A stretch of 64,000 nt of DNA from Flavobacteriales bacterium DA487. GTDB lineage: Bacteria; Bacteroidota; Bacteroidia; Flavobacteriales_D; Sanyastnellaceae. Every line of letters starts with the position of its first letter. Position 1 is the first letter of the stretch. The translations under genes and the position numbers were made by a program. The stretch is taken from NCBI GenBank assembly GCA_049334165.1, contig JBEGHD010000001.1. One strand, written 5' to 3'. The notes below the pieces were generated by a model, which saw only the letters and a program-made list of their open reading frames with translations, was not told where the DNA came from and did not search any database. Below are positions 20,290 to 39,338 of this stretch, in pieces.

Positions 20290-20799
20290 TTAACTCGGAT
20301 CGATCATCGGAACATTCATGCTCTCCAGGTCGCGATCGAATAGGTAGAGACCACTTTTATTGTCTCCAATCAGTTCCACTTTGTCCACGAGTGTACGTGC
20401 CAGGCCTTCTTCTTCAATTTGCTCAGAAACATACCACTGCATGAAATTGTGCGTGGTGTAATCCTTCTCAGAAAGGCAGATGTCAACCACATTGTTGATG
20501 GCTTTGGTCACGCGAACTTCGTGTGCGTAGAGGGTTGTGAAAATATCGTGGATGCCTTTGAATTCCGCAGGCGGCTCATCGAGTTTTGGAATTTTCGCCT
20601 GTCCTCCACGCTCGTTGATAAACTTGATCAACTTAAGCATGTGCTCGCGTTCCTCGTCAGAATGAACGTAGAGAAAACGGGCTACTCCGTTGTATCCCTC
20701 TACCTCGGCCCAGCTCGCCATAGCCAGGTAAAATTGCGATGATTCGGCTTCAATCAGCACTTGCTCGTTGAGCGCTTTTTCTATCTTTTTTGCTATCAT
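20290..20799 (-). CDS. ftnA: non-heme bacterial ferritin
   Basis: 169 aa; ferroxidase-centre residues (…EAESSQFYLAMASWAE…HSDEEREHMLKLIKF…). Confidence 0.9.
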   Translation of the reverse strand: MIAKKIEKALNEQVLIEAESSQFYLAMASWAEVEGYNGVARFLYVHSDEEREHMLKLIKFINERGGQAKIPKLDEPPAEFKGIHDIFTTLYAHEVRVTKAINNVVDICLSEKDYTTHNFMQWYVSEQIEEEGLARTLVDKVELIGDNKSGLYLFDRDLESMNVPMIDPS

Positions 20800-24044: not shown

Positions 24045-24770
24045 ATGAGTCGCGACTTTAACCAAAAAGACGAAATTGAAATCGTTGAAAAGCGAAAAAT
24101 AAAACGAATCACATTCGGCAATTTCGTGGCTTCAATTTTTGATGCCTTCAATCTCGAGCGCGGTTTAATTTTCACGATCAAACGGCTTTTTAAGAATCCG
24201 GGCAAGGCAGTTTCTGATTACCTTTCTACTGGACGGTTTAACTACACACCGCCCTTCCGACTACTTCTGGTAACTACTACCCTGATCATTTTGGTACTCA
24301 GCTTTTCCAGGTCAGGTAGTGAATTTATGAGTGGATTTACTTCAGAAATAGACAACGACAAGATCGTTCAGGACTTAAAATTCCTGGGACGGTTTCTCAA
24401 CCTAATTTTCTGGATTTTCATCCCAATCATCGCGTTTTTTCAATGGCTTTTCAACAGGCGCAGTGGCTACAACTACGCTGAGATGCTGGTTTTTCACACC
24501 TACATCTACTCCATTATTAATCTGATTTCACTTATCCTGGTTTTAGATTATTTCATCAACGGAGCCATTCTGACGCTCATCCTGATGGTGGGGTCTTCGA
24601 TCTACTACATTATTTCTTACAAAAGTTTTATGAAGAAAAGCTGGGGAAGAGCGATCTGGGAAATGATCGTTATCGGATCCATCAGCACCTTCATCTACAC
24701 AGTTATCATCATCGGGCTTATTGCGGGTATTATTATTCTGGAGCTCGGCCTGCCAGAAGTGGATATCTAA
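24045..24770 (+). CDS. multi-pass membrane protein (DUF3667-like)
   Basis: Soluble N-terminal segment of about 60 aa, then several hydrophobic helices; common Bacteroidetes architecture. Confidence 0.55.
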   Translation: MSRDFNQKDEIEIVEKRKIKRITFGNFVASIFDAFNLERGLIFTIKRLFKNPGKAVSDYLSTGRFNYTPPFRLLLVTTTLIILVLSFSRSGSEFMSGFTSEIDNDKIVQDLKFLGRFLNLIFWIFIPIIAFFQWLFNRRSGYNYAEMLVFHTYIYSIINLISLILVLDYFINGAILTLILMVGSSIYYIISYKSFMKKSWGRAIWEMIVIGSISTFIYTVIIIGLIAGIIILELGLPEVDI

Positions 24771-25303
24771 ACTCGCCAAACGACAGCTCTCAGGTCACCA
24801 TCGTGAGACATTGAAACATCCAGTTTTCGGCCTTTGTAAAGTCCGTAAGGCACACGTGAAGAGTCTTTTTGTAGAGTGATTTTTTGGCTTTTGAAATTGA
24901 TTGCTCTCGGTGCGGACTGATAGCTCTCGTACAAACTGGAAAACTCCAGATCTTCATTTAATTCAATTGCTGTGGCATGGATGTAATTACCGTCTTTTCG
25001 GCAAATACTTTTGAATCGAAGGTTTCCAATTTCAACCTGAAAGACAAACTCCTCTTCACTTACCTTGAATGCCTCGATGGAAATAGACTTCGGTTTAAAA
25101 ATACGCTCCCTGTACTTCTTAAACCAGGATTTATAAACCGCCTCTTTCACCGCCCAAAACTTCGCCTCCAGAAGAAATGGATCGTCTGCAGCTTCTATCC
25201 AGTTTCTCTCCCGCTGGGTGTAGATTTTCTGTCGGAAACGGCTGAGTCGATCTCCAGACCTGCGCTTCCAGTTGGGAAGGTAAACGAGGTCATTGCCGAT
25301 CAT
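24767..25303 (-). CDS. 4'-phosphopantetheinyl transferase (Sfp/AcpS superfamily)
   Basis: FWAVKEAVYK matches the W/FxxKEAxxK PPTase motif. 178 aa. Overlaps the ACP gene by 4 nt. Confidence 0.7.
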   Translation of the reverse strand: MIGNDLVYLPNWKRRSGDRLSRFRQKIYTQRERNWIEAADDPFLLEAKFWAVKEAVYKSWFKKYRERIFKPKSISIEAFKVSEEEFVFQVEIGNLRFKSICRKDGNYIHATAIELNEDLEFSSLYESYQSAPRAINFKSQKITLQKDSSRVPYGLYKGRKLDVSMSHDGDLRAVVWRV

Positions 25304-25557
25304 GATTTCTCTTTGAGCAGTCTTTCGGTAGCGTCAATAGCCTCACCCACAGTCAGCATTTTCTCGGCAGTGTCATCGTCAATTTCGATGTCAAACTCTT
25401 CCTCCATGTCGAGGATGATGTCGACCAGGTGAGCAGAATTGACCTGCAAGTCCTGGAGCATGTCGGTGTCCTCATTCACATTTTCAAAAGCCTCCTTGTT
25501 TTGCACGTAAGGCTCGATGACGGTTTTCAGTTTTTTGGTTATTTCCTCGCGGTTCAT
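25300..25557 (-). CDS. acyl carrier protein
   Basis: 85 aa, acidic, with the DLQVNSAHLVDI phosphopantetheine-attachment region. The start was chosen at MNREEI. Confidence 0.85.
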   Translation of the reverse strand: MNREEITKKLKTVIEPYVQNKEAFENVNEDTDMLQDLQVNSAHLVDIILDMEEEFDIEIDDDTAEKMLTVGEAIDATERLLKEKS

Positions 25558-26834
25558 GGAGTGTATTTTTTGAATATGACACATGAGTTGACATCGCCAA
25601 AGCCAAAGCTCGACTTTGCCACGACATTAATTTCTGCCTCCTCGAATGTACGTACAATTCGTTGTTCGTCAATAATGGCAGAGATCCCTGGGTGAACCTC
25701 TTCGCAATTGATGCTCGGATGCAAGAAGTTCTGGCTCAACTGAAGAACGGCAGCTACGTTCTCTATGGATCCCGCTGCACTGAGGCAATGGCCAATCAGC
25801 GATTTTAGCGCGTTGATTCGAGGGAAGTCGGCTCCACTTCTGCCGAGTGCTTCCGACCAGTTTTTCACCTCAGCCACATCGCCTTTGGTAGCCGTGAGGT
25901 GACCGGAAATCAAATCAATTTCCTTTGCTCCAATTTCCGCATCTGCCAGCGCTCCGCGAATGCAGTTTTGAATTCCTTCTTCGTTTGGCGCAGTCATACT
26001 TCCGCCATTTCTCTGTCCACCGCTGTTGAGGTGTCCACCGAGAACTTCAGCGTAGATTTTAGCTCCGCGGGTTTGAGCTGATTCAAGCGATTCGAGAATT
26101 AATGCCCCTGCTCCACTTCCGGGAACAAAACCTCCAGCGTCTGCAGCCATCGGTCGGCTTGCTGTTTGGGGGCTCTCGTTGTGCTTTGCGTTCAGAACCC
26201 GCATGGCATCGAAACCTCCCCACACGTAAGGTCCACCGGCATCGCAACTTCCCGCGATCATGATTTCCGCCCTTCCTCTTCGAATGTGATCGGTCGCCAG
26301 AATCACCGATTCAGTTCCGGTGCTGCAGGCACTGGCATTTGTAGTGACCCAGTTTCCGAGGCCAAATTTCCCGCTCAGGAAAGCACTGATTCCGCTGGGC
26401 ATGGTTTGCTCGACTGTTGAAGTGCCGAGTTTTCTCACCTTGACGTCATCGGTTTTATAGATCGCTTCTCTCAGCGTCTGAATTCCCGAGATGCCAGCAC
26501 CGAAAACGGCTCCACGGCCCCAGTGGGTTTGGCCCTCTTTTTCATCTGGAATTTCGAGTCCGGCAGAAAGCCAGGCCTCACGAGCAGCGAGTACACCGTA
26601 GATTACGCCATTTGCTTTTAGGCGCTTTCGCTCGAGAGGTGAAAAGTTGGCGTCCAGCATTTCTTCAGAAAGGTTTGGCGCACCGCCAACCTGGCACCGA
26701 AAGTCCAGTTCCTCCAATTCTGGGAAATAAGTGATTCCACTCCTCCCGGCTTTTAGAGCCCCGGTGAAATCTTCAACTCCAGTTCCATTTGGCGCGCAAA
26801 CGCCCAGCCCTGTGACGACAACTCTTCTGTTCAT
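25554..26834 (-). CDS. beta-ketoacyl-ACP synthase (KAS I/II-type)
   Basis: 426 aa; active-site Cys (NASACSTG) and two His (SGHLTATKGD, IGHCLSAAG). Confidence 0.9.
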   Translation of the reverse strand: MNRRVVVTGLGVCAPNGTGVEDFTGALKAGRSGITYFPELEELDFRCQVGGAPNLSEEMLDANFSPLERKRLKANGVIYGVLAAREAWLSAGLEIPDEKEGQTHWGRGAVFGAGISGIQTLREAIYKTDDVKVRKLGTSTVEQTMPSGISAFLSGKFGLGNWVTTNASACSTGTESVILATDHIRRGRAEIMIAGSCDAGGPYVWGGFDAMRVLNAKHNESPQTASRPMAADAGGFVPGSGAGALILESLESAQTRGAKIYAEVLGGHLNSGGQRNGGSMTAPNEEGIQNCIRGALADAEIGAKEIDLISGHLTATKGDVAEVKNWSEALGRSGADFPRINALKSLIGHCLSAAGSIENVAAVLQLSQNFLHPSINCEEVHPGISAIIDEQRIVRTFEEAEINVVAKSSFGFGDVNSCVIFKKYTP

Positions 26835-26972: not shown

Positions 26973-27458
26973 TTACTGGTGTAAAATCTTCACCATCCCA
27001 CTCAGCTCGCCCACACAAACGCGCTCTTCTTTCTCATTGTAGAGTTCAACCAGACAGTTCAGTTTTCCGAGCCTCCAGTATTTTTTTCTAGAAATCACAT
27101 GCACCTTCTCACCGGGGTAAACCGGATTTTCAAACATTACTTTCGACTCGGTGAAGGCAAAAGCAGGCTGACCGTTTTCGGAGATCGATTCGTCATTCAT
27201 AGAAAGGTAAATTCCCAAGCAGGCTACGCCAATTTGTGCCATGCACTCGGTGAGAATCACTCCGGGAGTAACCGGGCGATCTTTGAAATGACCAGCATAA
27301 AAGTGCTCGTCTTCGCGGAACGTGTAAACTCCTTCGATGCTGTTTTCATCAATTCTCAACAGCTCGTCCACAAATCGAAATGGCGGACCATAAGGAAGAA
27401 TTTCCAGTATTTTTTCTTTTACATCTTTCATTTCACGCAATGTTTTCTCCTCCGTCAA
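26973..27458 (-). CDS. hotdog-fold 3-hydroxyacyl-ACP dehydratase (FabZ/FabA-like)
   Basis: …FYAGHFKDRPVTPGVILTECMAQ… places the catalytic His in the FabZ-like motif. Alternative start MKDVKEK at 27431 would remove the 26-nt overlap with the KR gene. Confidence 0.8.
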   Translation of the reverse strand: MTEEKTLREMKDVKEKILEILPYGPPFRFVDELLRIDENSIEGVYTFREDEHFYAGHFKDRPVTPGVILTECMAQIGVACLGIYLSMNDESISENGQPAFAFTESKVMFENPVYPGEKVHVISRKKYWRLGKLNCLVELYNEKEERVCVGELSGMVKILHQ

Positions 27459-28224
27459 CCGGAATTACCGCTCCGTTGATCCACTTTGATTCGGGTTTCG
27501 AAAAAAGATAAACGGCATTGGCCACATCTTCCGGTGTTGTCAGACGGTGATAGGGATTTCTTTTCAGGCTTCCTTCAATCAGCTTGTCGCTGCCGGGAAT
27601 CATTCGCAGTGCCGGAGTGTCGGTGATGCCAGGTTGCAAAACATTTGCTCTCAGTCCGAGAGGCGCCAGCTCCAACGCCAAATTTCTGTTGATGGATTCG
27701 AGAGCACTCTTGGCGGCAGCAACAGCTCCGTAATTCCGCCAGGCTTTTCGAGCACCTTCGCTCGTGAGCGCAAGAAGTGAAGCATCTTCGGAAAACAAAC
27801 TGCGACTCAAAATCGCCTTCGCCCAGGAATAGTAGCTCACGGCCATGGCGTTGATGGTGATTGAAAAATCATCTTCCGAAAGCGTGTTTTCTACACTTTC
27901 GCCCTGACTTTTGGGTGCCATAGGTTTTAAGTTTCCTTTGGCCAGCGAGTGAAGCATGAGATCGACTTTCACACCAGCTTCTGACAACTCGTCCAAAATG
28001 GAGTTGATGTTTTCTTCTTTGAGCGCATCGGCATTGAAACTGCGAATTTCGATTCCACCTCTGCGCCAATCCTCAAAAGCCTCCTCTACTTTTCGGGCAT
28101 CGCTCTTTCTGCTGCGATACACCAGCACGAGGTCAAAACCTTCGCTGGCGAGTTTCTTTGCGGATGCAAAACCCATCCCGCTGCTGGCACCGAGAATGAT
28201 AGCGGTATTTTTGTTTTTATTCAA
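27433..28224 (-). CDS. short-chain dehydrogenase / 3-oxoacyl-ACP reductase (FabG-like)
   Basis: TAIILGASSGMGFA Rossmann motif and an SDR catalytic S…Y…K arrangement. Confidence 0.85.
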   Translation of the reverse strand: MNKNKNTAIILGASSGMGFASAKKLASEGFDLVLVYRSRKSDARKVEEAFEDWRRGGIEIRSFNADALKEENINSILDELSEAGVKVDLMLHSLAKGNLKPMAPKSQGESVENTLSEDDFSITINAMAVSYYSWAKAILSRSLFSEDASLLALTSEGARKAWRNYGAVAAAKSALESINRNLALELAPLGLRANVLQPGITDTPALRMIPGSDKLIEGSLKRNPYHRLTTPEDVANAVYLFSKPESKWINGAVIPVDGGENIA

Positions 28225-28249: not shown

Positions 28250-28590
28250 TAGACCATTATGTCGCTCCTCCGGAGCTTGTTCGTTGTTGGCTCTGTCATT
28301 GGCTACCAAAATGTCGTCCCTCTGGGACTTTCTCCAAAAGCAACTAAGTGCTCCGAAATGCTGGAGTTTCTCACAGAGACCACCGAAAAAAAGCACCGAG
28401 CTCACCTAGCGTTTTTCACAATTGAATACCCTCCTGATCAACCTACCAAGATTTCTCTGTCTTCTCCGTGAAGTCTCTGCGAGCTCTGCGAGAACATCCG
28501 TAGCTGCAAGCAACTCCCACCTTCGTTCTTCTACGCTGGGCAAGCATAAGTCAAAACAGATCTGCCCTAACTGCACGCATTCCAACTTTC
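28250..28590 (+). repeat. copy A of the dispersed intergenic element (see copy B at 19785-20200); it encodes the paralogous small ORF MSLLRSLFVVGSVIGYQNVVPLGLSPKA… and the palindrome GTCCC-TCT-GGGAC
   Basis: Aligned by eye against the reverse complement of 20085-20170; the distal TAACTGCAC…GCAT…AACTT block is also shared. Confidence 0.55.
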
Positions 28591-28642: not shown

Positions 28643-29701
28643 TCACTCCCATTTCAACAACAACCGCTGCGCGGAAAAGCCAGGACCAAAACTCAGCATC
28701 AATCCGTAATCGTCTTTTTTCACTTTCACGTTTTCGAGGTATTCTTCCAAAACATAAAGAACTGTTGCGCTGCTCATGTTTCCATAAACCCGCAACACTT
28801 CCCTGGTGACATCGATGTGTTTGCCGCGTGCATGCAGCAATTCCTCAACCATCTTCACGATTTTCTTTCCTCCGGGATGAAAAATAAAATGCTCCACATC
28901 GTCCACCTTCAAATCATTTCGCTCCAGGAAAGGCAACAAAATCCGATCGAAGTGCTCCTCAATCTTTTCGGGAACTGACGGGTCGAGCACCATTTTCAAA
29001 CCGGAGTTTTTCAGGTCGAAACCCATCATTCGCGATTCATCAAAGAAGTGATACATCGCCCGGTCGACAATTCTCGGCAAGAGTTTTTTATCGTCAGGAC
29101 CCAGAATCGTGCAAGCAGCTCCATCGCCAAAAATGGCGGCACTCACCATGTTGGTCATGCTGTAATCATCGAGCTGAAAAGTACTCGTTGGTGATTCCAG
29201 AGCAATCACAGCAGCTCGTTTGTCGGGTTGCGATTTGAGCAAGTCGTGGGCGTACATTAGAGCAGAAGTCCCGGCAGCACAACCCATCTCCGTTACCGGC
29301 AGGCGCATGATGTCCTGCTTCATTTTGAGTCGGTTGATGAGAAAAGCATCTACCGATGGAATCATAATTCCCGTGCAGGAAACCGTGATGATGTAATCGA
29401 TGTCTGTAGGTTTGAGCTCCGCTTTGGCAAGTGCTTTTCGCAAAGCATCCTCCGCCAGGTCTGTCATTCGCTCCGAGTAGAGGTTGTTCTTTTCTTCGAA
29501 AGAAGTTTGTGTAAAAACCTCTTCTGGCGACATGATGCTGTAGCGCTTGTCCACCTGAGCGTACTTAAAAATCCTGAGAACTTTGTCGCGAAAGCGTTTC
29601 GGTTGATCGCTCAACCAGCTTTCTACAAATGGCAGAATCTCTTCGGTCGTTCTTGTGTACTGGGGTAATGCTTTGGCGGTGGAGAGTATTTTGGTTGTCA
29701 A
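28643..29701 (-). CDS. type III polyketide synthase (chalcone/stilbene synthase family; alkylresorcinol/alkylpyrone synthase-like)
   Basis: Catalytic Cys in MGCAAGTSAL, His in FIFHPGGKKIV, Asn in GNMSSATVL, and the C-terminal SFGPGFS (GFGPG signature). 352 aa. These motifs distinguish it from FabH/DarB-type KS III. Confidence 0.85.
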   Translation of the reverse strand: MTTKILSTAKALPQYTRTTEEILPFVESWLSDQPKRFRDKVLRIFKYAQVDKRYSIMSPEEVFTQTSFEEKNNLYSERMTDLAEDALRKALAKAELKPTDIDYIITVSCTGIMIPSVDAFLINRLKMKQDIMRLPVTEMGCAAGTSALMYAHDLLKSQPDKRAAVIALESPTSTFQLDDYSMTNMVSAAIFGDGAACTILGPDDKKLLPRIVDRAMYHFFDESRMMGFDLKNSGLKMVLDPSVPEKIEEHFDRILLPFLERNDLKVDDVEHFIFHPGGKKIVKMVEELLHARGKHIDVTREVLRVYGNMSSATVLYVLEEYLENVKVKKDDYGLMLSFGPGFSAQRLLLKWE

Positions 29702-29707
29702 TATTTT

Positions 29708-30412
29708 TTAGTGTTTGGTGTCGATGATGGCCACCCAGCGAAACGCCCAGCGCCATTTCAATTTAAAGTTTTTGAGATCTGCTTTGTTCAGCAGCCTGTT
29801 CCAATCCTTTTTGGTGAAACTCTTTTTTACACTCAACTTCCCATCGTGGCGGCTGATGTGAGAAAATCGAAAAATACGAGAAGTCAGTCGAAAAAGCTGA
29901 TACGGAATCCAGTTTCGCTGCAAATCGTTGATGACAATGAATCGCGAGTTTTCGGCAGCCCTTTGCAGCAGCTCCACAATCTGATCATCGCTAAAATGAT
30001 GCAGCACCAGATTGAAAAGAACGATATCGAAATTTTCTTCGGGCCAATTTTCAAAAAGATCGGCACACACAAAATGAATGTTATCGAACGCTGCATTTTC
30101 CTTTTTGGCAAACTCCACGGCCGTTGAGTTGGCATCAAGCCCCACAAGTTCAAGTTTGCGGTTCTTAAAAATGGGGGTTTTGGCCAGGGCAGCCAGCGTA
30201 TCGCCTCCTCCACAACCCAGGTCGGCAATTCTCCAGTTTGATTTTGGGTCATCGCTGAGAATTTCCCTCACCGCACTAATGGCAATTTGATGTCCACCGA
30301 GCAGGCGATTTACTTTTCCGAGCTCGCGAAGATTTTCTGTCAGATCATTCCCAGTCAGCTCCAAATCGTCCAGTATTTCAGGCTCTCGCGAACGTTCTCT
30401 AATCTTTAGCAT
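29708..30412 (-). CDS. class I SAM-dependent methyltransferase
   Basis: IADLGCGGGD motif I; 234 aa. Confidence 0.8.
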   Translation of the reverse strand: MLKIRERSREPEILDDLELTGNDLTENLRELGKVNRLLGGHQIAISAVREILSDDPKSNWRIADLGCGGGDTLAALAKTPIFKNRKLELVGLDANSTAVEFAKKENAAFDNIHFVCADLFENWPEENFDIVLFNLVLHHFSDDQIVELLQRAAENSRFIVINDLQRNWIPYQLFRLTSRIFRFSHISRHDGKLSVKKSFTKKDWNRLLNKADLKNFKLKWRWAFRWVAIIDTKH

Positions 30413-30414
30413 TG

Positions 30415-31539
30415 TTATTCTACTGGTTTTCCGTGGGCCATTTTGGAAGCTCGCCCCAGCAATGGCGGAAATGTGCGCATTAAGCCAAGAGCCGCTCCGG
30501 TCAATCGCGGCTTGCCGAAAAGCTTACTCGCCTTGCGGCCAAAATAAAGCCTCGAGCCAAATTCATTTTTCCACGCTTTGCCGTAGCTTTTTTCCATCTC
30601 TTCTCTGGAGCAATTGCCGCTCAAAAATTGGTGAATTGCATCAGAACAAATCTGTGCGCTGTGAATGGCCATGGCCATGCCGTTTCCGCAAAAAGGATGA
30701 ATCAAACCGGCCGAGTCGCCACTCATCATCACGTGATCTTCGACAACCGGCTTTGGGTCAAAGTTGATCTGGCTGATCACAAGGGGTGACTTAAAAATCG
30801 GACTTGAATTCTCGAAGAAACTCTTGAGGTGAGGATTTTGAGCGAGGTGGTTCATCTCCATTTCCTCTATTCCAGAATATTTTTCCAAAACTTGCTGATC
30901 TACCAGGTAGCAGAGGTTCACCGCTCCGGTTTCCACTTTTGACAGCCCGCAGTAGCCACCATTAAAGTTGTGCAGCTGAACCAGATTTTCCTGAAAGTCT
31001 GACTCGTAGTGGCACTTCACACCAACGTAGGAAGTTCGCTTTTGCATAAAACTCCTGTCCAGTTCCTTGTCGAGATTGCTGCGCTTGCCAAAAGCTCCAA
31101 TCACAACCTGCGCTTTCACTTCCACTCCGCTTCTTGTCTTCAGGAAAAAGTGATCTGCATCGAAAGCCAGTTGTTTCACTCGCTCGTTGATCAAAACTTC
31201 AGCTCCCGACTTTTGGGCAACATCGGCCAGATGATCATCAAAAGCAAAACGGCTGATTCCGAATCCAGCGAGGTCTAGCTCCGATCCGACAACTTTGCCC
31301 GAAAGGTCGCTGATCTCGAGTCGATCAATTTCAGCGACATTTAAATCAGTCGGAAAAGCTCCGAGTCGATTGAGATAAGGCCTAATCTCGTTGCTCACAA
31401 ATTCACCGCAAACTTTGTGTTTGGGAAATTTGTCTTTTTCGAAAAGCACCACCGAGTAGCCCCGTTGCGAGAGGTCAATCGCGTTCACCAACCCGGCCAG
31501 CCCGCCACCGATGATCGCTATTTGATAATGACTTTTCAT
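30415..31539 (-). CDS. FAD-dependent oxidoreductase (geranylgeranyl-reductase / flavin monooxygenase-like)
   Basis: N-terminal dinucleotide-binding fold IAIIGGGLAGL…VLFEK…CGEF; 374 aa. Confidence 0.8.
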   Translation of the reverse strand: MKSHYQIAIIGGGLAGLVNAIDLSQRGYSVVLFEKDKFPKHKVCGEFVSNEIRPYLNRLGAFPTDLNVAEIDRLEISDLSGKVVGSELDLAGFGISRFAFDDHLADVAQKSGAEVLINERVKQLAFDADHFFLKTRSGVEVKAQVVIGAFGKRSNLDKELDRSFMQKRTSYVGVKCHYESDFQENLVQLHNFNGGYCGLSKVETGAVNLCYLVDQQVLEKYSGIEEMEMNHLAQNPHLKSFFENSSPIFKSPLVISQINFDPKPVVEDHVMMSGDSAGLIHPFCGNGMAMAIHSAQICSDAIHQFLSGNCSREEMEKSYGKAWKNEFGSRLYFGRKASKLFGKPRLTGAALGLMRTFPPLLGRASKMAHGKPVE

Positions 31540-31604
31540 CTGTGGCTTCAGGGCGGTGAGTGGTTTTAATCTTTGGGTTCAAGTGCTTTTCGCAGCTCAG
31601 GAAA

Positions 31605-32396
31605 TTATTCCAAAACTATCACTGCTGCGGGGTCAAGCACCTCAAAGGTAAACGATTCGGTGAAGTACAAATTCACATTTTTCACTTCGTGGTAGTCGTA
31701 GCCGACAGACAAGTCTCGACCGAGGGTCAACCTGAAGTCGCCTCCGCGCTGCGACACCAAAAAGGCATCTTTGATGTGATGGGAGAAAATGATTTTACCA
31801 CCCAGCAATTTTTCAACTTGTTTTTTCAACGGATAGCCGGAATCAATGTCGCTGGCCAGTTTTTGCCATTTGTCTTTATCAACTACCAGCGAATAAGGAC
31901 CTTCCACTCCGGCTTTCTTAAACATGCTCAGCCCTTGCGCAATCGTCTGGAGCAGTTCTGAATTCTCGCCAAACTTCAACTTCTCGTGTTCACTAGCATC
32001 TTTCAAACCTTTAATCCCGGCCTTGTTCATACCGTAGTAAATCGCTTTCTCTTCAAATTCAGCAATGGCGTTAGCCGCGTCTTCCAGGTTGTCGAGTTCC
32101 ACGTCTTCATTTCCGCGCTCAGCATTGTCAAGCTCCCACACGTTGAGTTTAAAACTCACTCGCGGTTCCACCAGCGGCTGCACTTCGTGAATTCCGTACT
32201 GTAAACTTCCCTTTTGTCCTTTAGGGATTTCCAATCGGCCTTTGCTCACCGATCCGTAGTCCCAACCTTTGGGTCCGTCCACGTCCACAAACTTCCGCGC
32301 AGAAAGCACCGAGCTAAAAATCTCAACTGATTGTTCATCTATTTCGTCCCAGGCCTTGTCGGCAATGGGCGCCAAACTTCTTCTCAATAAATCCAT
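31605..32396 (-). CDS. Family 1 encapsulin nanocompartment shell protein (HK97-fold, linocin-M18-like)
   Basis: 263 aa; collinear with the T. maritima encapsulin throughout (MDLLRRSLAPIADKAWDEID…RKFVDVDGPKGWDYG…WELDN…ERG…GVEGPYSLVV…YPLKKQVE…GGKII…RGGDF…LGRDLSVGY). Confidence 0.9.
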   Translation of the reverse strand: MDLLRRSLAPIADKAWDEIDEQSVEIFSSVLSARKFVDVDGPKGWDYGSVSKGRLEIPKGQKGSLQYGIHEVQPLVEPRVSFKLNVWELDNAERGNEDVELDNLEDAANAIAEFEEKAIYYGMNKAGIKGLKDASEHEKLKFGENSELLQTIAQGLSMFKKAGVEGPYSLVVDKDKWQKLASDIDSGYPLKKQVEKLLGGKIIFSHHIKDAFLVSQRGGDFRLTLGRDLSVGYDYHEVKNVNLYFTESFTFEVLDPAAVIVLE

Positions 32397-32417
32397 TTCT
32401 GTAGTCTCCTTTTGTTT

Positions 32418-32777
32418 TTAGTGATCAATTTTTCCAATTCCGAGTCCCTTGTCAGCACCACCTTTTTTACCAGACGATTTTCCTGTAGCCTCTTTTTCAG
32501 CTTTCAGAATGTCGCCCTCGCTAAACAGGTAGGTGCGCAATTGCTCGTCCCATCCAGGCTGATTTCTCCTCAACCACTCCAGGGTCATGCAAGCGTGTTC
32601 CATCTCCTCGTTGCGGTTGTGCTCCAGTATTTTTCGAAGTTGTTCGTCCTCGCAAGGATCGATGCGCTGCTGATACCAGTCAATCGCCTCAACCTCTTCT
32701 TGCAAGGTGTTAAGAGCGCGTCTGTATTCGCGCGTTTCTTTGCTGAGCTCTTCAGCCGGTTCGTGAAATTCTGACAT
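32418..32777 (-). CDS. encapsulated ferritin-like cargo protein (EncFtn) with a C-terminal encapsulin-targeting peptide
   Basis: EncFtn-like core (…EAIDWYQQRI…LRKILEHNRNEEMEHACMTLEWLRR…), a flexible Gly/Lys linker and the terminal GLGIGKIDH cargo-loading motif. The start was chosen at MSEFHEP, 119 aa. Confidence 0.85.
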   Translation of the reverse strand: MSEFHEPAEELSKETREYRRALNTLQEEVEAIDWYQQRIDPCEDEQLRKILEHNRNEEMEHACMTLEWLRRNQPGWDEQLRTYLFSEGDILKAEKEATGKSSGKKGGADKGLGIGKIDH

Positions 32778-32883
32778 GTCTTTTTTGTTTTGGGTTTCAA
32801 ATAAAAAATCAACGACCACCGACCCGAAAAGATCGACAGCCATTGATTTAACAACAAGAGAATCGTAAGATGTTCAAATTTTT

Positions 32884-32975
32884 GGGCGCCCACCGCTCAA
32901 TCGCGGTGCCGGGCTTTCCGCTATATCTTGCCCTCAGCCGGGCAAGGATGCCGCGTCAATCCCTGGCGCGGGGCG
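32884..32975. other. GC-rich (about 67% GC), stem-rich element of about 92 nt; candidate structured RNA or protein-binding site. Strand unknown
   Basis: Nested complementary segments CGCCC…GGGCG, CGCGGU…GCCGCG, CUUGCCC-UCAGCC-GGGCAAG, and two TCAATC-loop hairpins. GC content is far above the flanking DNA. Confidence 0.3.
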
Positions 32976-32998: not shown

Positions 32999-34570
32999 CT
33001 ACTTGAAAGTTACCTTGCCAACTTTCTGCTTATTTCCGTCAAGGGTATACATAAACAGATGACCGCCATCACGAGATGCCTCAGAAAATCCTGGCACCAG
33101 AAGTTGTCCTGTTTCGTCATTGTTACTCAGTAATTCCGAACTCACATTTCCCGATTCATCCACAATTGTCCACGCTGTAAAGTTGGTTTTGAGGGTCGAT
33201 CGACCCATTCCTTTTTGCTCTTCTTCAGAATAGAAAAACTCACCCGCTACATTGTAGAAAAGATGGATCTGTCCATTCTTAAATACAGGGTACGTATAAG
33301 CCTCATGGAAGTCAGGACTCCGGCTCTCGAGCTCTTGCTTTTTATCAACCATAGAAATCCACTGAATCTCACCTTCCGAGCTCGCTGACACCGTGATTAT
33401 GTCCATGGTTTTCATGAAGTATTTAGTGTCTGATTCACTGTCAAAATACTGTTCAGCAACAAATTGGAAACCATTTGTACTTGCATTCAAACCTCTCAAC
33501 TCCATTTCTATTTCTGGTCTATACCTGGATTCCGCACCGAGTAAACCTTTTCGAACCATGCTTTTAGCAATAACACCACTTGCGAACTCGTCCGCACTTG
33601 ACCCTGTAATTCTCATACTGTTCGGGTCAACACTAAAAACAAATGCACCATCAGTCGTAACATCCTCGTCAGACGTGATGTTGTTGCTAAAGATGCCTCC
33701 GACAAGCAGGTTATCTGATGATGCAAAAGCATAATCCGATATCAAAACACGTCTATTCTCTAAATCAAGATTGAGATACTTTTCTGTACCCTCAGAAATT
33801 GAATATTTATAAAGTAGCAGCCGGTCCATTTTTGGCTTTTCTCCGAGAGAACGGCTTTCAAGACCCGGTTCCTTTTTGTTCTCACTGATCAATTGAATAA
33901 AAAGATCCCCTGACCCAGTCGCTCTGGGGACAAAATGAATCGGGTTGTAGAAAGAAGTCCATTTCATAATCGGCTCAATATCATAATCCTCAAGCTCGAG
34001 TACAATTTCTTTTTCATGCTGCAGATTCATTTCCAAATCGAAAAGCTTGTAGTCCACTTGCATGCCATACTTATTGTTTAAAATAGCGATTTTAGACTCA
34101 TCCTCTGAAAAGAGGACTTCAAAGGAACCTCTATAATATTTGTCCGGCAGCCTCTCTTTCGTTGACCAAAATACTTTTGGTGAAGCTGTAACCCTGAAAG
34201 ACTTAATGTCGATTTTTAGAAACGCAAGTTTATCAGACTTTTCAATCTCCGAGTCGTCTTTCAAAAAGACAAATAATTCATCTCCTACAACAAGTAGTTT
34301 GACAAACTCTGCTTCACCTTCAGCAAATTTGCCAGAAACTTCGATCGTACCTGCGAGATTCATATTCCCGTCAAACTTTTCTACTGTAATATCTCTTCCC
34401 GCTTTGACAATGAAAAAATCACTATTTGCTACAATGGTTTGCTCAACCTCCTGCTTGCGTGAGTTCTTAACCTCCTCGCTCCACTGAATTTCTGCTTTCT
34501 CGGTAAGATCCTGGGCTGTGAGTGAAATAGAAATAAAGGCTGACATTAGTCCAATGAATAGTTTGCGCAT
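32999..34570 (-). CDS. hypothetical secreted protein (523 aa)
   Basis: Signal peptide MRKLFIGLMSAFISISLTAQ; no motif recognised. Confidence 0.6.
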   Translation of the reverse strand: MRKLFIGLMSAFISISLTAQDLTEKAEIQWSEEVKNSRKQEVEQTIVANSDFFIVKAGRDITVEKFDGNMNLAGTIEVSGKFAEGEAEFVKLLVVGDELFVFLKDDSEIEKSDKLAFLKIDIKSFRVTASPKVFWSTKERLPDKYYRGSFEVLFSEDESKIAILNNKYGMQVDYKLFDLEMNLQHEKEIVLELEDYDIEPIMKWTSFYNPIHFVPRATGSGDLFIQLISENKKEPGLESRSLGEKPKMDRLLLYKYSISEGTEKYLNLDLENRRVLISDYAFASSDNLLVGGIFSNNITSDEDVTTDGAFVFSVDPNSMRITGSSADEFASGVIAKSMVRKGLLGAESRYRPEIEMELRGLNASTNGFQFVAEQYFDSESDTKYFMKTMDIITVSASSEGEIQWISMVDKKQELESRSPDFHEAYTYPVFKNGQIHLFYNVAGEFFYSEEEQKGMGRSTLKTNFTAWTIVDESGNVSSELLSNNDETGQLLVPGFSEASRDGGHLFMYTLDGNKQKVGKVTFK

Positions 34571-34785: not shown

Positions 34786-36024
34786 GTGGAAGAGCTAAAA
34801 GTAATTGCATTAACCCATAAAAACCTCAGCCTCGAAGACATTGGCAAGTTTCACCTTGCCGATGACGAACGCGAATCGAGACTGCAGGAAATCAAAGAAA
34901 AATTCGGATTTGACGAATTGATGTTTCTCAGCACGTGCAATCGTGTGGAGATCGTCCTTTCGGTAAACCGTTTTTACTGCATGGGCCAGGCAAGAGAATT
35001 GCTTCAGGAACTCTCCAGCGATGTGCATCCAGATTTTCTTCAGCGCATCGTGCACAAAGTTGAGCTCTTCTCGGGTCGTGCTGCGCTCGAGCACCTCATC
35101 AAAGTAGCTTCATCGCTCGACTCGATGGTGATTGGCGAACGCGAAATCATCACGCAGGTGCGCAAAGCATTTGAAGAAAGCCGTCAGTTCGGAATTTCAG
35201 GCGACCTCTGCAGATTGGTGATCAAGCAAACCATCGCTTCGGCAAAAAGAATTTACACCGACACGCACATCGCTCGCAAACCGGTTTCTGTGGTTTCGCT
35301 GGCCTGGCAACGAATTCTTTCCAAAAAACTCCCGAAAGACTCCAGAGTGCTGTTGATCGGTGCCGGACAGATCATCCGCAACATGAGCCGCTTTTTGCAA
35401 AAAGGGAAGTTCGAAAACGTGACTGTTGCCAACCGCACCCTCCACAGGGCTGAATCAATTGCCGACCTTTTCGAAAACGGCAAAGCCATTTCTCTCGAAG
35501 ATCTTTCGACCTACGAAGGCGGCTTCGATTTGATGATCACCTGCACCGGTTCTGACGAAGCAGTGATCACAGAAAAAATCTACGATCAGCTCACCAAAGG
35601 TGAAGACACACACAAAATCATTTTCGACCTGGCTCTTCCGGCCGATGTGGATCCTACTCTGACCAACATCCACGACATCGACTACACCGGCATGCCGCAG
35701 CTCAAAACTGTAGCCGACAAAAACATCGCTGAGCGATCCAAAGAAGTTGAGCGCTGCGAAAGACTGGTTCAGGAAGGCATGGCCGAGTTCGACAAAATGC
35801 ACGAGCAGCGTCAGATTGAGATCGCTATGCGCGATATCCCCAGAGCGATCAAAGAAATTCGCGAGACAGCCATCGGTGAAGTCTTCGCCAAAGACCTCGA
35901 AGGCCTCGACTCTGAAAGCCGTGAAGTCCTCGAAAAAATCATGGGCTACATGGAAAAGAAATACATCAGCGTTCCCATGAAAATGGCCAAGCAGGTGATT
36001 TTGGAGAGTAAGGGGCGGAGTTGA
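34786..36024 (+). CDS. hemA: glutamyl-tRNA reductase
   Basis: STCNRVE active-site region; NADPH-binding GAGQ motif; GTG start. Confidence 0.9.
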   Translation: MEELKVIALTHKNLSLEDIGKFHLADDERESRLQEIKEKFGFDELMFLSTCNRVEIVLSVNRFYCMGQARELLQELSSDVHPDFLQRIVHKVELFSGRAALEHLIKVASSLDSMVIGEREIITQVRKAFEESRQFGISGDLCRLVIKQTIASAKRIYTDTHIARKPVSVVSLAWQRILSKKLPKDSRVLLIGAGQIIRNMSRFLQKGKFENVTVANRTLHRAESIADLFENGKAISLEDLSTYEGGFDLMITCTGSDEAVITEKIYDQLTKGEDTHKIIFDLALPADVDPTLTNIHDIDYTGMPQLKTVADKNIAERSKEVERCERLVQEGMAEFDKMHEQRQIEIAMRDIPRAIKEIRETAIGEVFAKDLEGLDSESREVLEKIMGYMEKKYISVPMKMAKQVILESKGRS

Positions 36025-36025: not shown

Positions 36026-36081
36026 AGTTTTGTCTGATGTTAGGTCAGTCCTTTTTCTTACCTTTAGATAAAATCAGTCGT

Positions 36082-36297
36082 ATGGACTCCATCAAAGTAG
36101 ATATATTAAACCCCACTGCTAAAAAGTTACTAAAGGCTCTGGCGGAATTGAAGCTTATAAGAATTCGTCCAGAGAAATATGACTCTACTGAATTCTCCGC
36201 CTTTCTAGAACAAATCCGATCGAAGTCTCAGGAGCCCTTGTCTCTTGATGAAATCACAAAAGAGGTCGAAGATGTAAGGAAGAAACGCAATGAGTAA
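36082..36297 (+). CDS. putative antitoxin of a PIN-toxin pair (71 aa)
   Basis: Small ORF immediately upstream of, and overlapping by 8 nt, the PIN-domain gene. The start was chosen at MDSIKV. Confidence 0.5.
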   Translation: MDSIKVDILNPTAKKLLKALAELKLIRIRPEKYDSTEFSAFLEQIRSKSQEPLSLDEITKEVEDVRKKRNE

Positions 36298-36700
36298 ATC
36301 CCGGGTCATAGTTGATACCAATCTCTGGGTTTCATTTCTAATCACTAAAAGTCACCAAGTTTTCGAAAGGCGGATCTCTGAGAATAGAATTGCCCTAATA
36401 TTTTCAGAAGAATTGATTCTTGAGTTGGTTGAAGTCCTCAATCGTCCCAAGTTTTCAAGATATTTCTCCAAAGAGGACATTGAAAATTTGCTTTTGATAA
36501 TAGAAAATATCTCTGAGTTGATTATCTGCACATCGCGAACTCGAGTTTGCCGGGACGAAAAGGACAACTTCCTTCTTGATTTGGCTAAAGATGGGCAAGC
36601 CGATTATCTCATTACTGGCGATAACGACTTGCTGGTCTTAAAAAATTTTGACGGCACCCAGATAATCAGGTTTTCCGAATTTGAACAATTGTTTTCCTAA
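36290..36700 (+). CDS. PIN-domain toxin (VapC-like)
   Basis: Acidic PIN residues in VIVDTN…, …DEKDN… and …ITGDNDL… over 136 aa. Confidence 0.75.
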   Translation: MSKSRVIVDTNLWVSFLITKSHQVFERRISENRIALIFSEELILELVEVLNRPKFSRYFSKEDIENLLLIIENISELIICTSRTRVCRDEKDNFLLDLAKDGQADYLITGDNDLLVLKNFDGTQIIRFSEFEQLFS

Positions 36701-37742: not shown

Positions 37743-39338
37743 TTGCAAGCTATGGCAGAAAAGAAACCGATTATCATTGGCTCGCGCGGAAGCGACCTCG
37801 CTTTGTGGCAAGCTAACTTTGTGAAAGATCGCCTCACCGAGCTGGGTGAAAAAGCAGAAATCAAGATCATCAAAACGCAAGGCGATAAGATTCAGCACCT
37901 TAGTTTTGACAAGATGGAAGGCAAGGGATTTTTCACCAAAGAAATTGAAGCCGAGCTGCTCGATGGTACTATCGATCTGGCAGTGCACTCCCACAAAGAT
38001 CTGGAAACGACCAACCCCGAAGGTCTCACCATCGCTGCCGTGAGTAGCAGAGCCAATCCGGCCGACTTGCTGCTTATCAACCCAGACGCGGTGAAAGACA
38101 AACTGAAATTTCATCTCAAGTCCAACCCAGTGGTGGGAACTTCCTCTGCCAGACGCAAAGCCCAGTTGCTGTTTTTCCGCCCGGATGCGAAGATCAAAGA
38201 CCTTCGCGGGAACGTTCCTACTCGCATTCAAAAACTCAAGGACGGTCAGTATGATGCCATCCTGATTGCAAAAGCCGGAATCGACCGACTGAACATCGAC
38301 CTAAGCGATCTGCACGTTTTTGAGATGGATCCCACAGTTTTCATTCCGGCTCCGGCCCAGGGCGTTTTGGGACTGCAAGTTCGGGAGGGCGATAAAGACC
38401 TCATTGAAACGCTCAAATCGCTTAATGATGAAGAAGTAGCTGAGAGAATTGCCGTAGAAAGAAATGTTCTCAAATTGATGAAAGGCGGCTGCCAAATGCC
38501 ACTTGGTGTGTACTGCGTAAAAACAGATGACGAATACTTTGTTTATTCCGCTCTGGCCGATGCCTGGGATGCTCCCTTGAGGCGCGACTATGTGGAGACC
38601 AACACCCTCGCAGGAGTGGCTGAGGGAATCGCCAAAAGGCTTCAGCTCAAAGAACACAAAAGAACAGTTTTCATCTCTCGCGGTTTGCCCGAAAACTCAG
38701 ACATCAAAAGACTGCTGAGCAATATGGGAGTGAAATTGATCGACACTACGCTGATTCAGTCCGAGGCGCTTTCGTTTAGCTACGACAACGACCCCGACTG
38801 GATTTTCTTCTCTTCGAGAAATGCCGTCCACTACTTTTTCGGTCAGCACAAACCTTCTTCAAAATCGAAAATGGCAGCGCTCGGAAAGGGTACTGCCGAT
38901 GAACTGTCGCGCTACGCTAAAGTCGACTTCGCTGGCTCAGGTGCCGATACCAAAGCCATTGCAGAAAGCTTCAAAGCCAAAGTTGGCAAAGGCACCGTGA
39001 TGTTTCCGCAGTCGAAGCAGAGCTTGCGCTCAATCCAAAGCGTTTTCCCCGAAGAGCAGGTAGAAAATGTGGTCTGCTACGAAACGCTGGCTGACCCCAA
39101 ACCGATTCATGCGGATGTACTTTTCTTCACGAGTCCGAGCAACACCAGCGCCTACCTGATGATGAACGACATCGAACCTCATCAACTAGTGGTGGGGATG
39201 GGTGCTTCCACTTCGAACTTTATGAAAGAGCGAGGCCACACGGTGGTTGCCACTCCGAGAAACTACTCGGACCTGGCCATTTTGGATGCCATCCTTTATG
39301 CGCTGAGCCTCGAGGAACCAGTGAGTGAAGATGCCTGA
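37743..39338 (+). CDS. hemC: bifunctional hydroxymethylbilane synthase / uroporphyrinogen-III synthase (HemC-HemD fusion)
   Basis: N-terminal about 300 aa HemC-like (…IIGSRGSDLALWQAN…MPLGVYC…), C-terminal about 230 aa HemD-like. Confidence 0.85.
   Translation: MQAMAEKKPIIIGSRGSDLALWQANFVKDRLTELGEKAEIKIIKTQGDKIQHLSFDKMEGKGFFTKEIEAELLDGTIDLAVHSHKDLETTNPEGLTIAAVSSRANPADLLLINPDAVKDKLKFHLKSNPVVGTSSARRKAQLLFFRPDAKIKDLRGNVPTRIQKLKDGQYDAILIAKAGIDRLNIDLSDLHVFEMDPTVFIPAPAQGVLGLQVREGDKDLIETLKSLNDEEVAERIAVERNVLKLMKGGCQMPLGVYCVKTDDEYFVYSALADAWDAPLRRDYVETNTLAGVAEGIAKRLQLKEHKRTVFISRGLPENSDIKRLLSNMGVKLIDTTLIQSEALSFSYDNDPDWIFFSSRNAVHYFFGQHKPSSKSKMAALGKGTADELSRYAKVDFAGSGADTKAIAESFKAKVGKGTVMFPQSKQSLRSIQSVFPEEQVENVVCYETLADPKPIHADVLFFTSPSNTSAYLMMNDIEPHQLVVGMGASTSNFMKERGHTVVATPRNYSDLAILDAILYALSLEEPVSEDA

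Follow-up and report, generated by a model that had tools for sequence, protein, structure and literature searches.

We found that two adjacent genes in the window (the whole 64,000-nucleotide stretch of DNA analyzed here) form a canonical, self-contained Family-1 Flp/EncFtn encapsulin system, in which the EncFtn cargo gene and the shell gene make up one operon. The pair stands directly upstream of a type III polyketide synthase (PKS) cluster. We consider it probable that the whole is best explained by a canonical iron-storage encapsulin that has come to lie beside the PKS cluster in one lineage; functional coupling between the encapsulin and the PKS genes is unlikely. The NCBI annotation for Halocola ammonii, the organism of the window, already names both genes as EncFtn and encapsulin, and the GC content of the region is unremarkable. 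The components of the operon are as follows.

31605..32396 (-), Family-1 encapsulin shell gene, 263 aa; NCBI WP_459072672.1
32397..32417 (-), spacer between EncFtn and the shell gene, 21 nt, A-rich; read from the sequence
32418..32777 (-), EncFtn cargo gene, 119 aa; NCBI WP_459072673.1
32421..32447 (-), cargo-loading peptide GLGIGKIDH, with the LGIGKI anchor at 32427-32444

The original prediction had read these two neighboring minus-strand ORFs as EncFtn and a Family-1 shell, and all of its sequence-level statements agreed with our analysis.

Shell and cargo

In the family search, both proteins exceeded the curated cut-offs of the Pfam and NCBIfam/TIGR profiles. The shell matched PF04454 (Linocin_M18) with 283 bits (cut-off 24.3) and NF041155 'encap_f1' with 280 bits (cut-off 100), in both cases over the full length. 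Residues 1-262 of the shell aligned to residues 1-263 of the T. maritima encapsulin (3DKT/7MU1; E=3e-75) and were collinear throughout, as had been claimed for Thermotoga-type encapsulins. The AF2 model of the shell (pLDDT 84, pTM 0.79) was used to check for the HK97 fold with Foldseek, and it matched the T=1 shells of T. maritima and H. ochraceum (7KQ5, 7OE2, and 7ODW) with TM 0.91-0.94 and rmsd 1.9-2.3 Å; shells of the T=3 and T=4 types were matched with only 18-23% identity.

The HK97 fold is common to phage capsids, and a weak match to PF09950 (Major_capside) was obtained below its threshold (19 bits, cut-off 26.8); the shell might thus be taken for a degenerate prophage major capsid protein. 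This explanation was refuted by the tests of family and context. The score on the encapsulin equivalog model is 280 bits, the identity to the T. maritima encapsulin is 45%, and a cargo gene with a cargo-loading peptide is adjacent. The neighbors of the shell gene are EncFtn, a gene for a 523-aa secreted protein (family unassigned), hemA, and biosynthetic genes. No phage morphogenesis genes (portal, terminase, protease) were found next to the shell gene, and no neighbor matched a phage protein family.

The cargo gene, which encodes the C-terminal targeting peptide, is located 21 nt upstream of the shell gene. EncFtn matched PF22277 (137 bits, cut-off 27) and TIGR04535 (152 bits, cut-off 125) and aligned to the EncFtn of H. 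ochraceum (7OE2, E=1e-35) and that of R. rubrum (5DA5, 7e-31). Its metal-site motifs EEVEAIDWY and NEEMEH are matched by EELEAVDWY and NEEVEH in the H. ochraceum protein, and the residues of the ferroxidase center are present in this alignment. In R. rubrum EncFtn, we take the ferroxidase center to be E32, E62, and H65, with Y39 nearby.

The start codon of EncFtn is the ATG at 32777. A longer ORF of 141 aa, starting at 32843, was rejected, because frame-shifting indels in a sister lineage (about 77% nucleotide identity) preserve a hairpin in the leader rather than the encoded peptide, and because the NCBI record is 119 aa long, in agreement with the start at 32777. In the longer ORF, this start is Met 23, and the family models align only from residues 25-26.

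The tail of EncFtn ends in GLGIGKIDH, the cargo-loading peptide that had been proposed. A C-terminal LGIGK[I/L] or a near variant was found in nearly all relative loci (15/16), and the linker before the anchor varies freely. When all 378 ORF segments in the window were searched for the targeting-peptide motif, the one in EncFtn was the sole cargo-loading peptide; a second encapsulin cargo was not found.

As for the function of the system, we infer the T number, the assembly, the cargo loading, and the ferroxidase activity by analogy with homologs. Because the shell is 263 aa long, is collinear with the T. maritima encapsulin, and is only distantly similar to shells of the T=3 and T=4 types (18-23% identity), a T=1 architecture is expected, and 60 subunits of the HK97-fold protein would most likely assemble as an icosahedral particle of about 24 nm. 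EncFtn would most likely form annular decamers, docked in the shell by the C-terminal LGIGKI anchor; its di-iron ferroxidase sites would oxidize Fe(II), and the Fe(III) mineral would be kept inside the shell. The outcome would be iron storage and protection from oxidative stress, alongside a conventional ferritin 11 kb away. This ferritin, which had been noted at 20290-20799 (-), matched PF00210 with 130 bits.

Sequences upstream and downstream of the operon

Two elements were found in the leader upstream of EncFtn.

32806..32849 (-), stable hairpin of 20 bp with a U-run behind it; the element ends 28 nt upstream of the EncFtn ATG
32903..32972 (-), Flavo-1-like RNA or repeat element, a near-threshold match to RF01705

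The fold z-scores of the hairpin are -6.1 for the window and -6.9 for the sister lineage. Compensatory changes between the two (A-U to G-C, and U-G to U-A) were observed, and the G-U pairs tie the hairpin to the sense strand. It resembles a terminator or an attenuator.

In the Rfam scan of the leader, nothing reached the gathering threshold. RF01705 gave 40.3 bits (E=2.4e-7 in a 401-nt search, positions 1-76) against a gathering score of 42; in the sister lineage, the match at the equivalent location was full length (1-76) with 41.3 bits. As the score is under the threshold of 42 bits, we call the element 'Flavo-1-like' and not a member of RF01705. A role of the leader as a riboswitch or a dedicated cis-regulator was rejected for three reasons: the sister lineage has a second, identical Flavo-1-like copy 9.5 kb away, antisense to its flanking genes; the encapsulin leaders of two other loci (L010 and L013) do not contain the element; and in transcriptomics, Flavo-1 matches occur in either orientation or beyond transcripts (PMC9723704). 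For the encapsulin operon itself, no convincing sigma-A promoter was located. The best candidate for an EncFtn promoter, TTTATTTG, has one mismatch and is not conserved, and was discarded.

The genes downstream of the shell gene lie on the same strand.

30415..31539 (-), FAD-dependent oxidoreductase; Pfam DAO and FAD_binding_3, TIGR02032 (121 bits)
29708..30412 (-), SAM-dependent methyltransferase; PF13847 and PF13649
28643..29701 (-), type III PKS; PF00195 and PF02797; NCBI WP_459072669.1
24767..28224 (-), acyl-chain unit from SDR to PPTase; profile matches
27433..28224 (-), SDR
26973..27458 (-), FabZ-like
25554..26834 (-), KS
25300..25557 (-), ACP-like
24767..25303 (-), PPTase

The identities that had been given to the first three genes were upheld by the profile matches. 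The FAD-dependent oxidoreductase, encoded by the first gene of the trio, has 100% identity to that of H. ammonii; the gaps within the trio are 2 and 6 nt. The type III PKS has the motifs MGCAAG, FHPGG, and GNMSSA, with the Cys-His-Asn triad. This combination is a known type of alkylresorcinol operon (PMC10896814), and by sequence the trio is hidABC/srsABC-like, with alkylresorcinol as the predicted product class. The genes from SDR to PPTase are dedicated acyl-chain genes, conserved beside the trio in Flavobacteriales.

The physical adjacency to this cluster is the one observation in favor of a shell that encloses the enzymes or intermediates of the PKS pathway, like the Family-3 encapsulins, which sit in BGCs containing PKS and SDR genes (PMC8346489). 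We regard such a biosynthetic compartment as very improbable. The shell belongs to Family 1 (PF04454/NF041155), not to the PF05065-type Family 3, and has its own dedicated EncFtn cargo; moreover, related genera carry the PKS cluster with no encapsulin. No cargo-loading peptide or similar motif was found at the ends of the oxidoreductase, the methyltransferase, the type III PKS, SDR, FabZ-like, and KS proteins. The PKS enzymes are not encapsulin cargo.

The junction between the shell gene and the trio contains two regions of interest.

31540..31604 (-), spacer from the shell stop codon to the ATG of the FAD-dependent oxidoreductase, 65 nt
31630..31679 (-), block in the 3' end of the shell gene, 50 nt, 100% identical in the sister lineage

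The spacer had been described as 65 bp without an intrinsic terminator, and this description was correct: the terminator scan and the fold z-scores gave no terminator-like site in the spacer of the window or of the sister lineage. With z-scores of -0.9 and +1.6, respectively, it is unstructured in both. The length of the spacer is kept (65 nt in the window and 64 nt in the sister lineage) and its sequence is poorly conserved. As there is no terminator in the spacer, some read-through from the encapsulin genes into the PKS trio may be possible.

The 50-nt block is the longest perfect run of coding sequence in the 8-kb alignment of the window and the sister lineage. It spans 16 identical codons, which was reached in 40 of 20000 shuffles. 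Bacteroidota promoters use TAnnTTTG, and this motif occurs 12 times upstream of gene starts in the window, compared with about 2.3 expected. The block includes TTTG-N17-TACCTTTG, with the -7 box at 31643-31650, which is a candidate internal sigma-A promoter of the PKS genes; the trio probably also has its own promoter within the 3' end of the shell gene. On the other hand, the conservation of the motif may be a by-product of coding, because it overlaps the conserved FTFE codons and because a similar TAnnTTTG is present in a Chitinophagales shell gene without a PKS cluster downstream. As for elements that would separate the two sets of genes, we found no terminator and one candidate promoter. 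The missing terminator and the conserved 64-65-nt spacer are equally compatible with obligatory co-transcription.

Two other attempts were discarded. The more proximal TAGTTTTG (31611-31618) reads TCGTACTT in the sister lineage, and is therefore not conserved as a PKS promoter. A scan of 25-35 kb for sigma-70 promoters and terminators gave counts equal to those of shuffles; since Bacteroidota use TAnnTTTG, the scan was uninformative for promoters, and it was replaced by the TAnnTTTG motif scan.

Linkage to the PKS cluster in relatives

We compared 18 shell loci besides those of Halocola and the sister lineage; 13 of them had at least 0.8 kb of sequence past the shell gene, and five had less than 0.6 kb. 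The shell searches of genome and metagenome contigs gave few close relatives, and the closest contexts were obtained through exact-protein look-ups. EncFtn is located directly upstream of the shell gene in all 18 loci. None of them has the oxidoreductase, the methyltransferase, and the type III PKS next to the shell gene within the sequence available (13 with at least 0.8 kb downstream). In the loci whose neighbors were examined, these differ: DnaB follows the shell gene in one lineage, and in another a glyoxalase gene precedes the pair and a convergent gene follows it. Conversely, Owenweeksia and a related genome have the genes from the FAD-dependent oxidoreductase to ACP in the same order (FADox-MT-T3PKS-SDR-FabZ-KS-ACP) and no encapsulin.

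The encapsulin and PKS genes stand side by side only in H. ammonii and the one sister lineage (loci L014-L018 and L021; L027 covers the upstream half of the arrangement). Between the window and the sister lineage, about 20 kb from hemCD to TilS are collinear, and the retention of the linkage is no more than this general collinearity. Thus, the conservation of the linkage in relatives, on which the original prediction depended, was not found outside one sister lineage. That the pair physically adjoins a phenolic-lipid cluster with a type III PKS is confirmed; the functional 'fusion' that had been implied is not supported. The arrangement had also been called undescribed, and our literature search found no paper describing such an adjacency or linking encapsulin and PKS systems; one paper that mentions encapsulins along with polyketide synthases or alkylresorcinols treats them as separate categories of genome mining, with no linkage reported.

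These data also bear on a possible functional stress module, in which the encapsulin pair would be transcribed together with the alkylresorcinol/alkylquinone trio as a single unit responding to iron or oxidants; for example, the redox-active phenolic lipid would act as a membrane antioxidant beside iron sequestration, or hydroquinone electrons would release stored iron. All the genes are on the same strand, the spacer is free of terminators and of conserved length in both lineages, a strong terminator-like hairpin precedes the encapsulin operon and none follows it, and two lineages at about 77% nucleotide identity retain the adjacency. Polyketide quinones are electron carriers in other bacteria, according to work cited in PMC10896814. 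However, the linkage was not found in the 18 other shell loci (13 with at least 0.8 kb downstream), the orthologous PKS clusters of Owenweeksia and the related genome do without an encapsulin, and the retention in the sister lineage does not go beyond the 20-kb collinearity. In addition, a candidate internal promoter is present, the spacer sequence is poorly conserved, and our literature search gave no link between encapsulin and phenolic-lipid systems. We therefore think such a unit unlikely. A single stress-responsive transcript of the Halocola lineage, with the encapsulin genes promoter-proximal and driving the trio, so that iron sequestration and the phenolic lipid are co-regulated, also seems improbable; the lipid would then be a membrane antioxidant or an electron donor for iron release.

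The present evidence points to neutral juxtaposition rather than co-regulation. Family-1 Flp systems have been described as widespread, and encapsulin operons seem to be often transferred horizontally (Andreas & Giessen 2021, PMC8346489). The patchy distribution of the pair, the one line of evidence here, suggests horizontal acquisition: a mobile two-gene cassette would have been inserted between hemA and the older Flavobacteriales PKS cluster in the ancestor of Halocola.

The finding places a classical EncFtn encapsulin in a halophilic, recently described genus of Flavobacteriales, which is mainly of cataloging value, and gives a clean example of a two-gene encapsulin cassette in a new genomic context. 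It also indicates that two sets of genes side by side, with no terminator between them, give little evidence of functional coupling if each set is widespread on its own. If read-through were real and regulated, it would suggest that iron storage and redox-active lipids are co-regulated, and a co-regulated transcript would be the first natural link of a Family-1 encapsulin to polyketide metabolism.

Comparison with known systems

The order of cargo and then shell is that of the Thermotoga maritima encapsulin and Flp (TM_0785/0786; PDB 3DKT, 7KQ5, and 7MU1) and of the encapsulin-EncFtn systems of Haliangium ochraceum and Rhodospirillum rubrum (7ODW, 7OE2, and 5DA5), and the ferroxidase motifs are retained in the EncFtn core. 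At about 265 aa, the shell shares its length and HK97 fold with the known shells and aligns to them over the full length, with 41-45% identity; as in these systems, a flexible linker in the cargo leads to a targeting peptide at the C-terminus. Unlike in these systems, the host belongs to a halophilic Flavobacteriales genus (none of the named homologs retrieved is from Flavobacteriales), the anchor reads LGIGKI and is followed by DH, the leader of the operon contains a conserved hairpin and a Flavo-1-like repeat, and no terminator stands before the next gene cluster.

The Family-3 natural-product encapsulins (PMC8346489) resemble our system in that the shell gene adjoins PKS and SDR genes. However, their shells are of the PF05065 type and not PF04454, and no dedicated cargo has been identified for these systems, which are found in Actinobacteria and Myxococcota, whereas the shell here has its own EncFtn. 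The BGC here also exists without an encapsulin in Owenweeksia and the related genome, so the locus does not pass for a Family-3 system.

The trio shares with hidABC, srsABC, and the planctomycetal alkylresorcinol operons (PMC10896814) three co-directional enzyme classes with the PKS last. It differs from hidABC in the order, which is oxidoreductase-methyltransferase-PKS here and methyltransferase-oxidoreductase-PKS there, and from hidABC-type operons in that a dedicated SDR/FabZ-like/KS/ACP/PPTase unit follows. An encapsulin pair stands before the alkylresorcinol trio in the Halocola clade only.

The encapsulin shell and its ferritin-like cargo

The gene identities and the physical arrangement given in the original prediction are right, and the observation was confirmed in every detail. 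The encapsulin pair and the conventional ferritin are as follows.

Encapsulin pair and conventional ferritin (coordinates, strand, description)
31605-32396, minus: Family-1 encapsulin shell gene (263 aa; Linocin_M18 and NCBIfam matches)
32418-32777, minus: EncFtn gene, encapsulated ferritin-like cargo (119 aa; EncFtn-like and TIGR04535 matches)
20290-20799: conventional ferritin gene (PF00210, 130 bits)

The shell protein scored 283 bits against Pfam Linocin_M18 (cut-off 24.3) and 280 bits against the NCBIfam equivalog 'family 1 encapsulin nanocompartment shell protein' (cut-off 100), and its residues 1-262 aligned with residues 1-263 of the T. maritima encapsulin (E=3e-75), in agreement with the predicted Thermotoga-type collinearity. 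An AlphaFold2 model obtained with 27 homologues as input (pLDDT 84, pTM 0.79) gave TM scores of 0.91-0.94 on superposition with the shells of T. maritima and H. ochraceum, and has their HK97 fold. Because the best 27 structural matches were all Family-1 shells (about 265 aa, 35-45% identity), and the T=3 and T=4 shells of M. xanthus and Q. thermotolerans ranked after them with only 18-23% identity, the shell would be expected to assemble into a T=1 particle of about 24 nm.

The cargo scored 137 bits against Pfam EncFtn-like and 152 bits against TIGR04535 'encapsulin-associated ferritin-like protein' (cut-off 125), and matched the EncFtn of H. ochraceum (E=1e-35) and R. rubrum (E=7e-31). The motifs EEVEAIDWY and NEEMEH, which we take to be the site of the Glu/Glu/His/Tyr of the ferroxidase centre, with residue roles as in the R. 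rubrum structure, are both present. A longer frame, back to 32843, was rejected: in a sister lineage known from metagenome contigs, frame-shifting indels in the extension spare an RNA hairpin, not a peptide, and the NCBI protein has 119 aa. The extension is thus non-coding and the start at 32777 is right.

EncFtn ends in ...GLGIGKIDH. LGIGK[I/L] or a near variant (LKIGKI, LGIGQ[IL], LGIGNL or LGIGKN) lies within the last ~10 residues in 15 of 16 relative loci, the translation of the 16th ending early, and the preceding linker is freely variable. Judged by sequence, a constant anchor after a variable linker is the signature of a cargo-loading peptide, as originally proposed. Among 378 ORF segments of the window, the LGIGKI-type C-terminal motif is unique to EncFtn. 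Conservation within the cassette is uneven: in a comparison with a Chitinophagales MAG (L010-L012), the EncFtn core shows 90% identity and the adjacent shell only 63%.

The polyketide synthase cluster and the linkage in relatives

[quoted passage not shown]

Genes around the encapsulin pair (coordinates, strand, description)
30415-31539, minus: FAD-dependent oxidoreductase, downstream of the shell gene
29708-30412, minus: SAM-methyltransferase, downstream of the oxidoreductase
28643-29701, minus: type III PKS (Cys/His/Asn motifs present)
25300-25557, minus: ACP-like ORF (~85 aa), flanked by the KS and PPTase genes
32999-34570, minus: 523-aa protein with a signal-like N-terminus, between hemA and the encapsulin leader
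34786-36024, plus: hemA, upstream of the encapsulin pair
37743-39338, plus: hemC-hemD fusion, upstream, beyond hemA

This trio belongs to a known type of alkylresorcinol operon that is widespread, including hidABC in cyanobacteria, srsABC in Streptomyces and operons in 58 planctomycete genomes (PMC10896814). After a 418-nt gap, poorly conserved in the sister lineage, come the genes for an SDR, a FabZ-like dehydratase, a KS, the ACP-like protein and a PPTase. The ACP-like ORF (...LQVNSAHLVD...) reads Asn-Ser where a phosphopantetheine site usually has Asp-Ser, and no precomputed Pfam hit was found for it among relatives. Within the gap, a ~95-nt non-coding block upstream of the SDR gene (~28255-28350, minus) has a nearly identical counterpart in the sister lineage, whose gap is ~580 nt and otherwise unalignable. 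This block contains two short GC hairpins, GTCCCAGAGGGAC and GCTCCGGAGGAGC, has no Rfam match, and may be the promoter or leader of the SDR-FabZ-KS-ACP-PPTase unit.

The oxidoreductase matches a protein of Halocola ammonii at 100% identity. This halophilic species of Flavobacteriales was described recently, in a paper that does not mention the shell, EncFtn or type III PKS genes (PMC12838360). The NCBI annotation already carries the names family 1 encapsulin shell protein, encapsulin-associated ferritin-like protein and type III polyketide synthase.

We compared 18 other shell loci (L001-L013 and L022-L026; shells 47-73% identical), mostly from Bacteroidales, Chitinophagales and other Bacteroidota MAGs, 13 of which extend at least 0.8 kb past the shell gene, the other five ending sooner. 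EncFtn lies directly upstream of the shell in all 18, and none has the oxidoreductase, methyltransferase or PKS gene near the shell within the available sequence. The genes that follow the shell vary where listed (DnaB in a 63% relative, a convergent gene in a 73% relative). Conversely, Owenweeksia hongkongensis and a related genome share the order oxidoreductase-methyltransferase-PKS-SDR-FabZ-KS-ACP (oxidoreductases 53-54% and PKSs 76-79% identical to those of the window), and neither PKS cluster has an encapsulin. Beyond the window, the encapsulin-PKS arrangement occurs only in the one sister lineage (L014-L018 and L021; L027 covers the upstream half). The predicted physical adjacency stands and is found in this lineage, but it was not seen at the other shell loci within the available sequence, nor at these two PKS clusters.

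The sister lineage is 92% identical in the shell, 82% in the oxidoreductase and 77% in DNA over 8 kb, and its spacer between the shell and oxidoreductase genes is 64 nt, versus 65 nt in the window. Since the entire region from hemCD to TilS is collinear, retention of the junction is uninformative beyond shared ancestry. Within the trio, conservation is uneven (PKS 93%, oxidoreductase and methyltransferase 81-82%). In the simplest history, the Halocola ancestor would have gained a two-gene encapsulin cassette by insertion between hemA and an older PKS cluster of Flavobacteriales, in line with the horizontal transfer that Andreas & Giessen noted for encapsulin operons (PMC8346489).

The heme-biosynthesis genes hemA and hemC-hemD adjoin the iron-storage encapsulin, an adjacency conserved to the same degree as that with the PKS genes. 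The 523-aa protein matched nothing in Pfam or NCBIfam; its gene is absent from the sister-lineage position, where hemA and EncFtn diverge directly across a 415-nt intergenic region, and it was not found at any other locus compared. A small ORF and PIN-domain pair between hemA and hemCD (36037-36700, plus) resembles a toxin-antitoxin module, and related PIN pairs (36-45% identity) lie between the FabZ-like and KS genes of Owenweeksia and the related genome (L019 12264-12940, L020 14528-15368).

The leader, the spacer and a candidate internal promoter

A GC-rich leader of 221 nt extends from the stop codon of the 523-aa gene (32999) to the EncFtn ATG; no convincing sigma-A promoter of the encapsulin operon was found.

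Elements in the leader (coordinates, strand, description)
32903-32972, minus: Flavo-1-like element (orphan RNA motif RF01705, E=2.4e-7; near-threshold, 40.3 bits against a gathering score of 42)
32806-32849, minus: 20-bp hairpin plus U-run, the end of which lies 28 nt upstream of the EncFtn ATG

The sister lineage has two identical copies of the Flavo-1-like element 9.5 kb apart (L015 8569-8638 and 18079-18148; 40-41 bits over both lineages), and the ~92-nt core has a single mismatch between lineages otherwise 77% identical. We rejected an encapsulin-specific regulator and regard the element as a repeat or sRNA-like element that is dispersed and under strong constraint, because the second sister-lineage copy is antisense to its flanking genes, more distant encapsulin leaders do not contain the element, and published transcriptomics of F. 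psychrophilum placed Flavo-1 hits in both orientations, frequently outside transcripts (PMC9723704). The hairpin is very stable (z = -6.1 in the window, -6.9 in the sister lineage) and shows compensatory changes (A-U to G-C, U-G to U-A). As no co-directional protein gene lies upstream of it in the sister lineage, it would end or attenuate a non-coding or leader transcript.

The spacer (31540-31604) was predicted to have no terminator, and no terminator-like site was found there; its sequence is poorly conserved in the sister lineage and folds no better than shuffled sequence (z = -0.9 in the window, +1.6 in the sister lineage). Read-through from the shell gene into the trio is for these reasons physically possible, and co-expression of the encapsulin pair with the alkylresorcinol genes by this route is the only non-trivial possibility left for a coupling, though we consider it improbable.

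Bacteroidota promoters have a -7 box, TAnnTTTG (PMC9723704), to which our sigma-70 scan was blind. The window has 35 such motifs, 12 of them no more than 150 nt ahead of a gene start on the same strand. Given the share of the sequence that is so placed, ~2.3 would be expected, so the motif carries information here. The shell gene has two copies in its final 50 nt. The proximal one, TAGTTTTG (31611-31618), was discarded as unconserved in the sister lineage. The distal one, TACCTTTG (31643-31650), has TTTG upstream at a 17-nt spacing and falls within a 50-nt stretch (31630-31679) with 100% identity to the sister lineage, the longest perfect coding-sequence run in the 8-kb alignment; its 16 identical codons were equalled in only 40 of 20000 shuffles. 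However, the motif overlaps conserved FTFE codons, and a Chitinophagales shell gene without a downstream PKS cluster contains a similar one. The distal motif is a candidate internal promoter for the PKS genes, and nothing more.

Probable function and comparison with known encapsulins

The fusion of the encapsulin to the PKS pathway is not supported as a functional one, because both modules are widespread independently of each other, the junction is limited to a single small clade, and none of the PKS-cluster enzymes has a targeting peptide (378 ORF segments of the window examined). The compartment most likely functions like those of T. maritima, R. rubrum and H. ochraceum: the LGIGKI anchor would tether EncFtn decamers inside the T=1 shell, the tethered decamers would most likely oxidise Fe(II), and the mineral would probably be stored in the shell lumen. 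The shell of the window is a Family-1 encapsulin with its own cargo, not a Family-3 encapsulin of the kind set within biosynthetic clusters.
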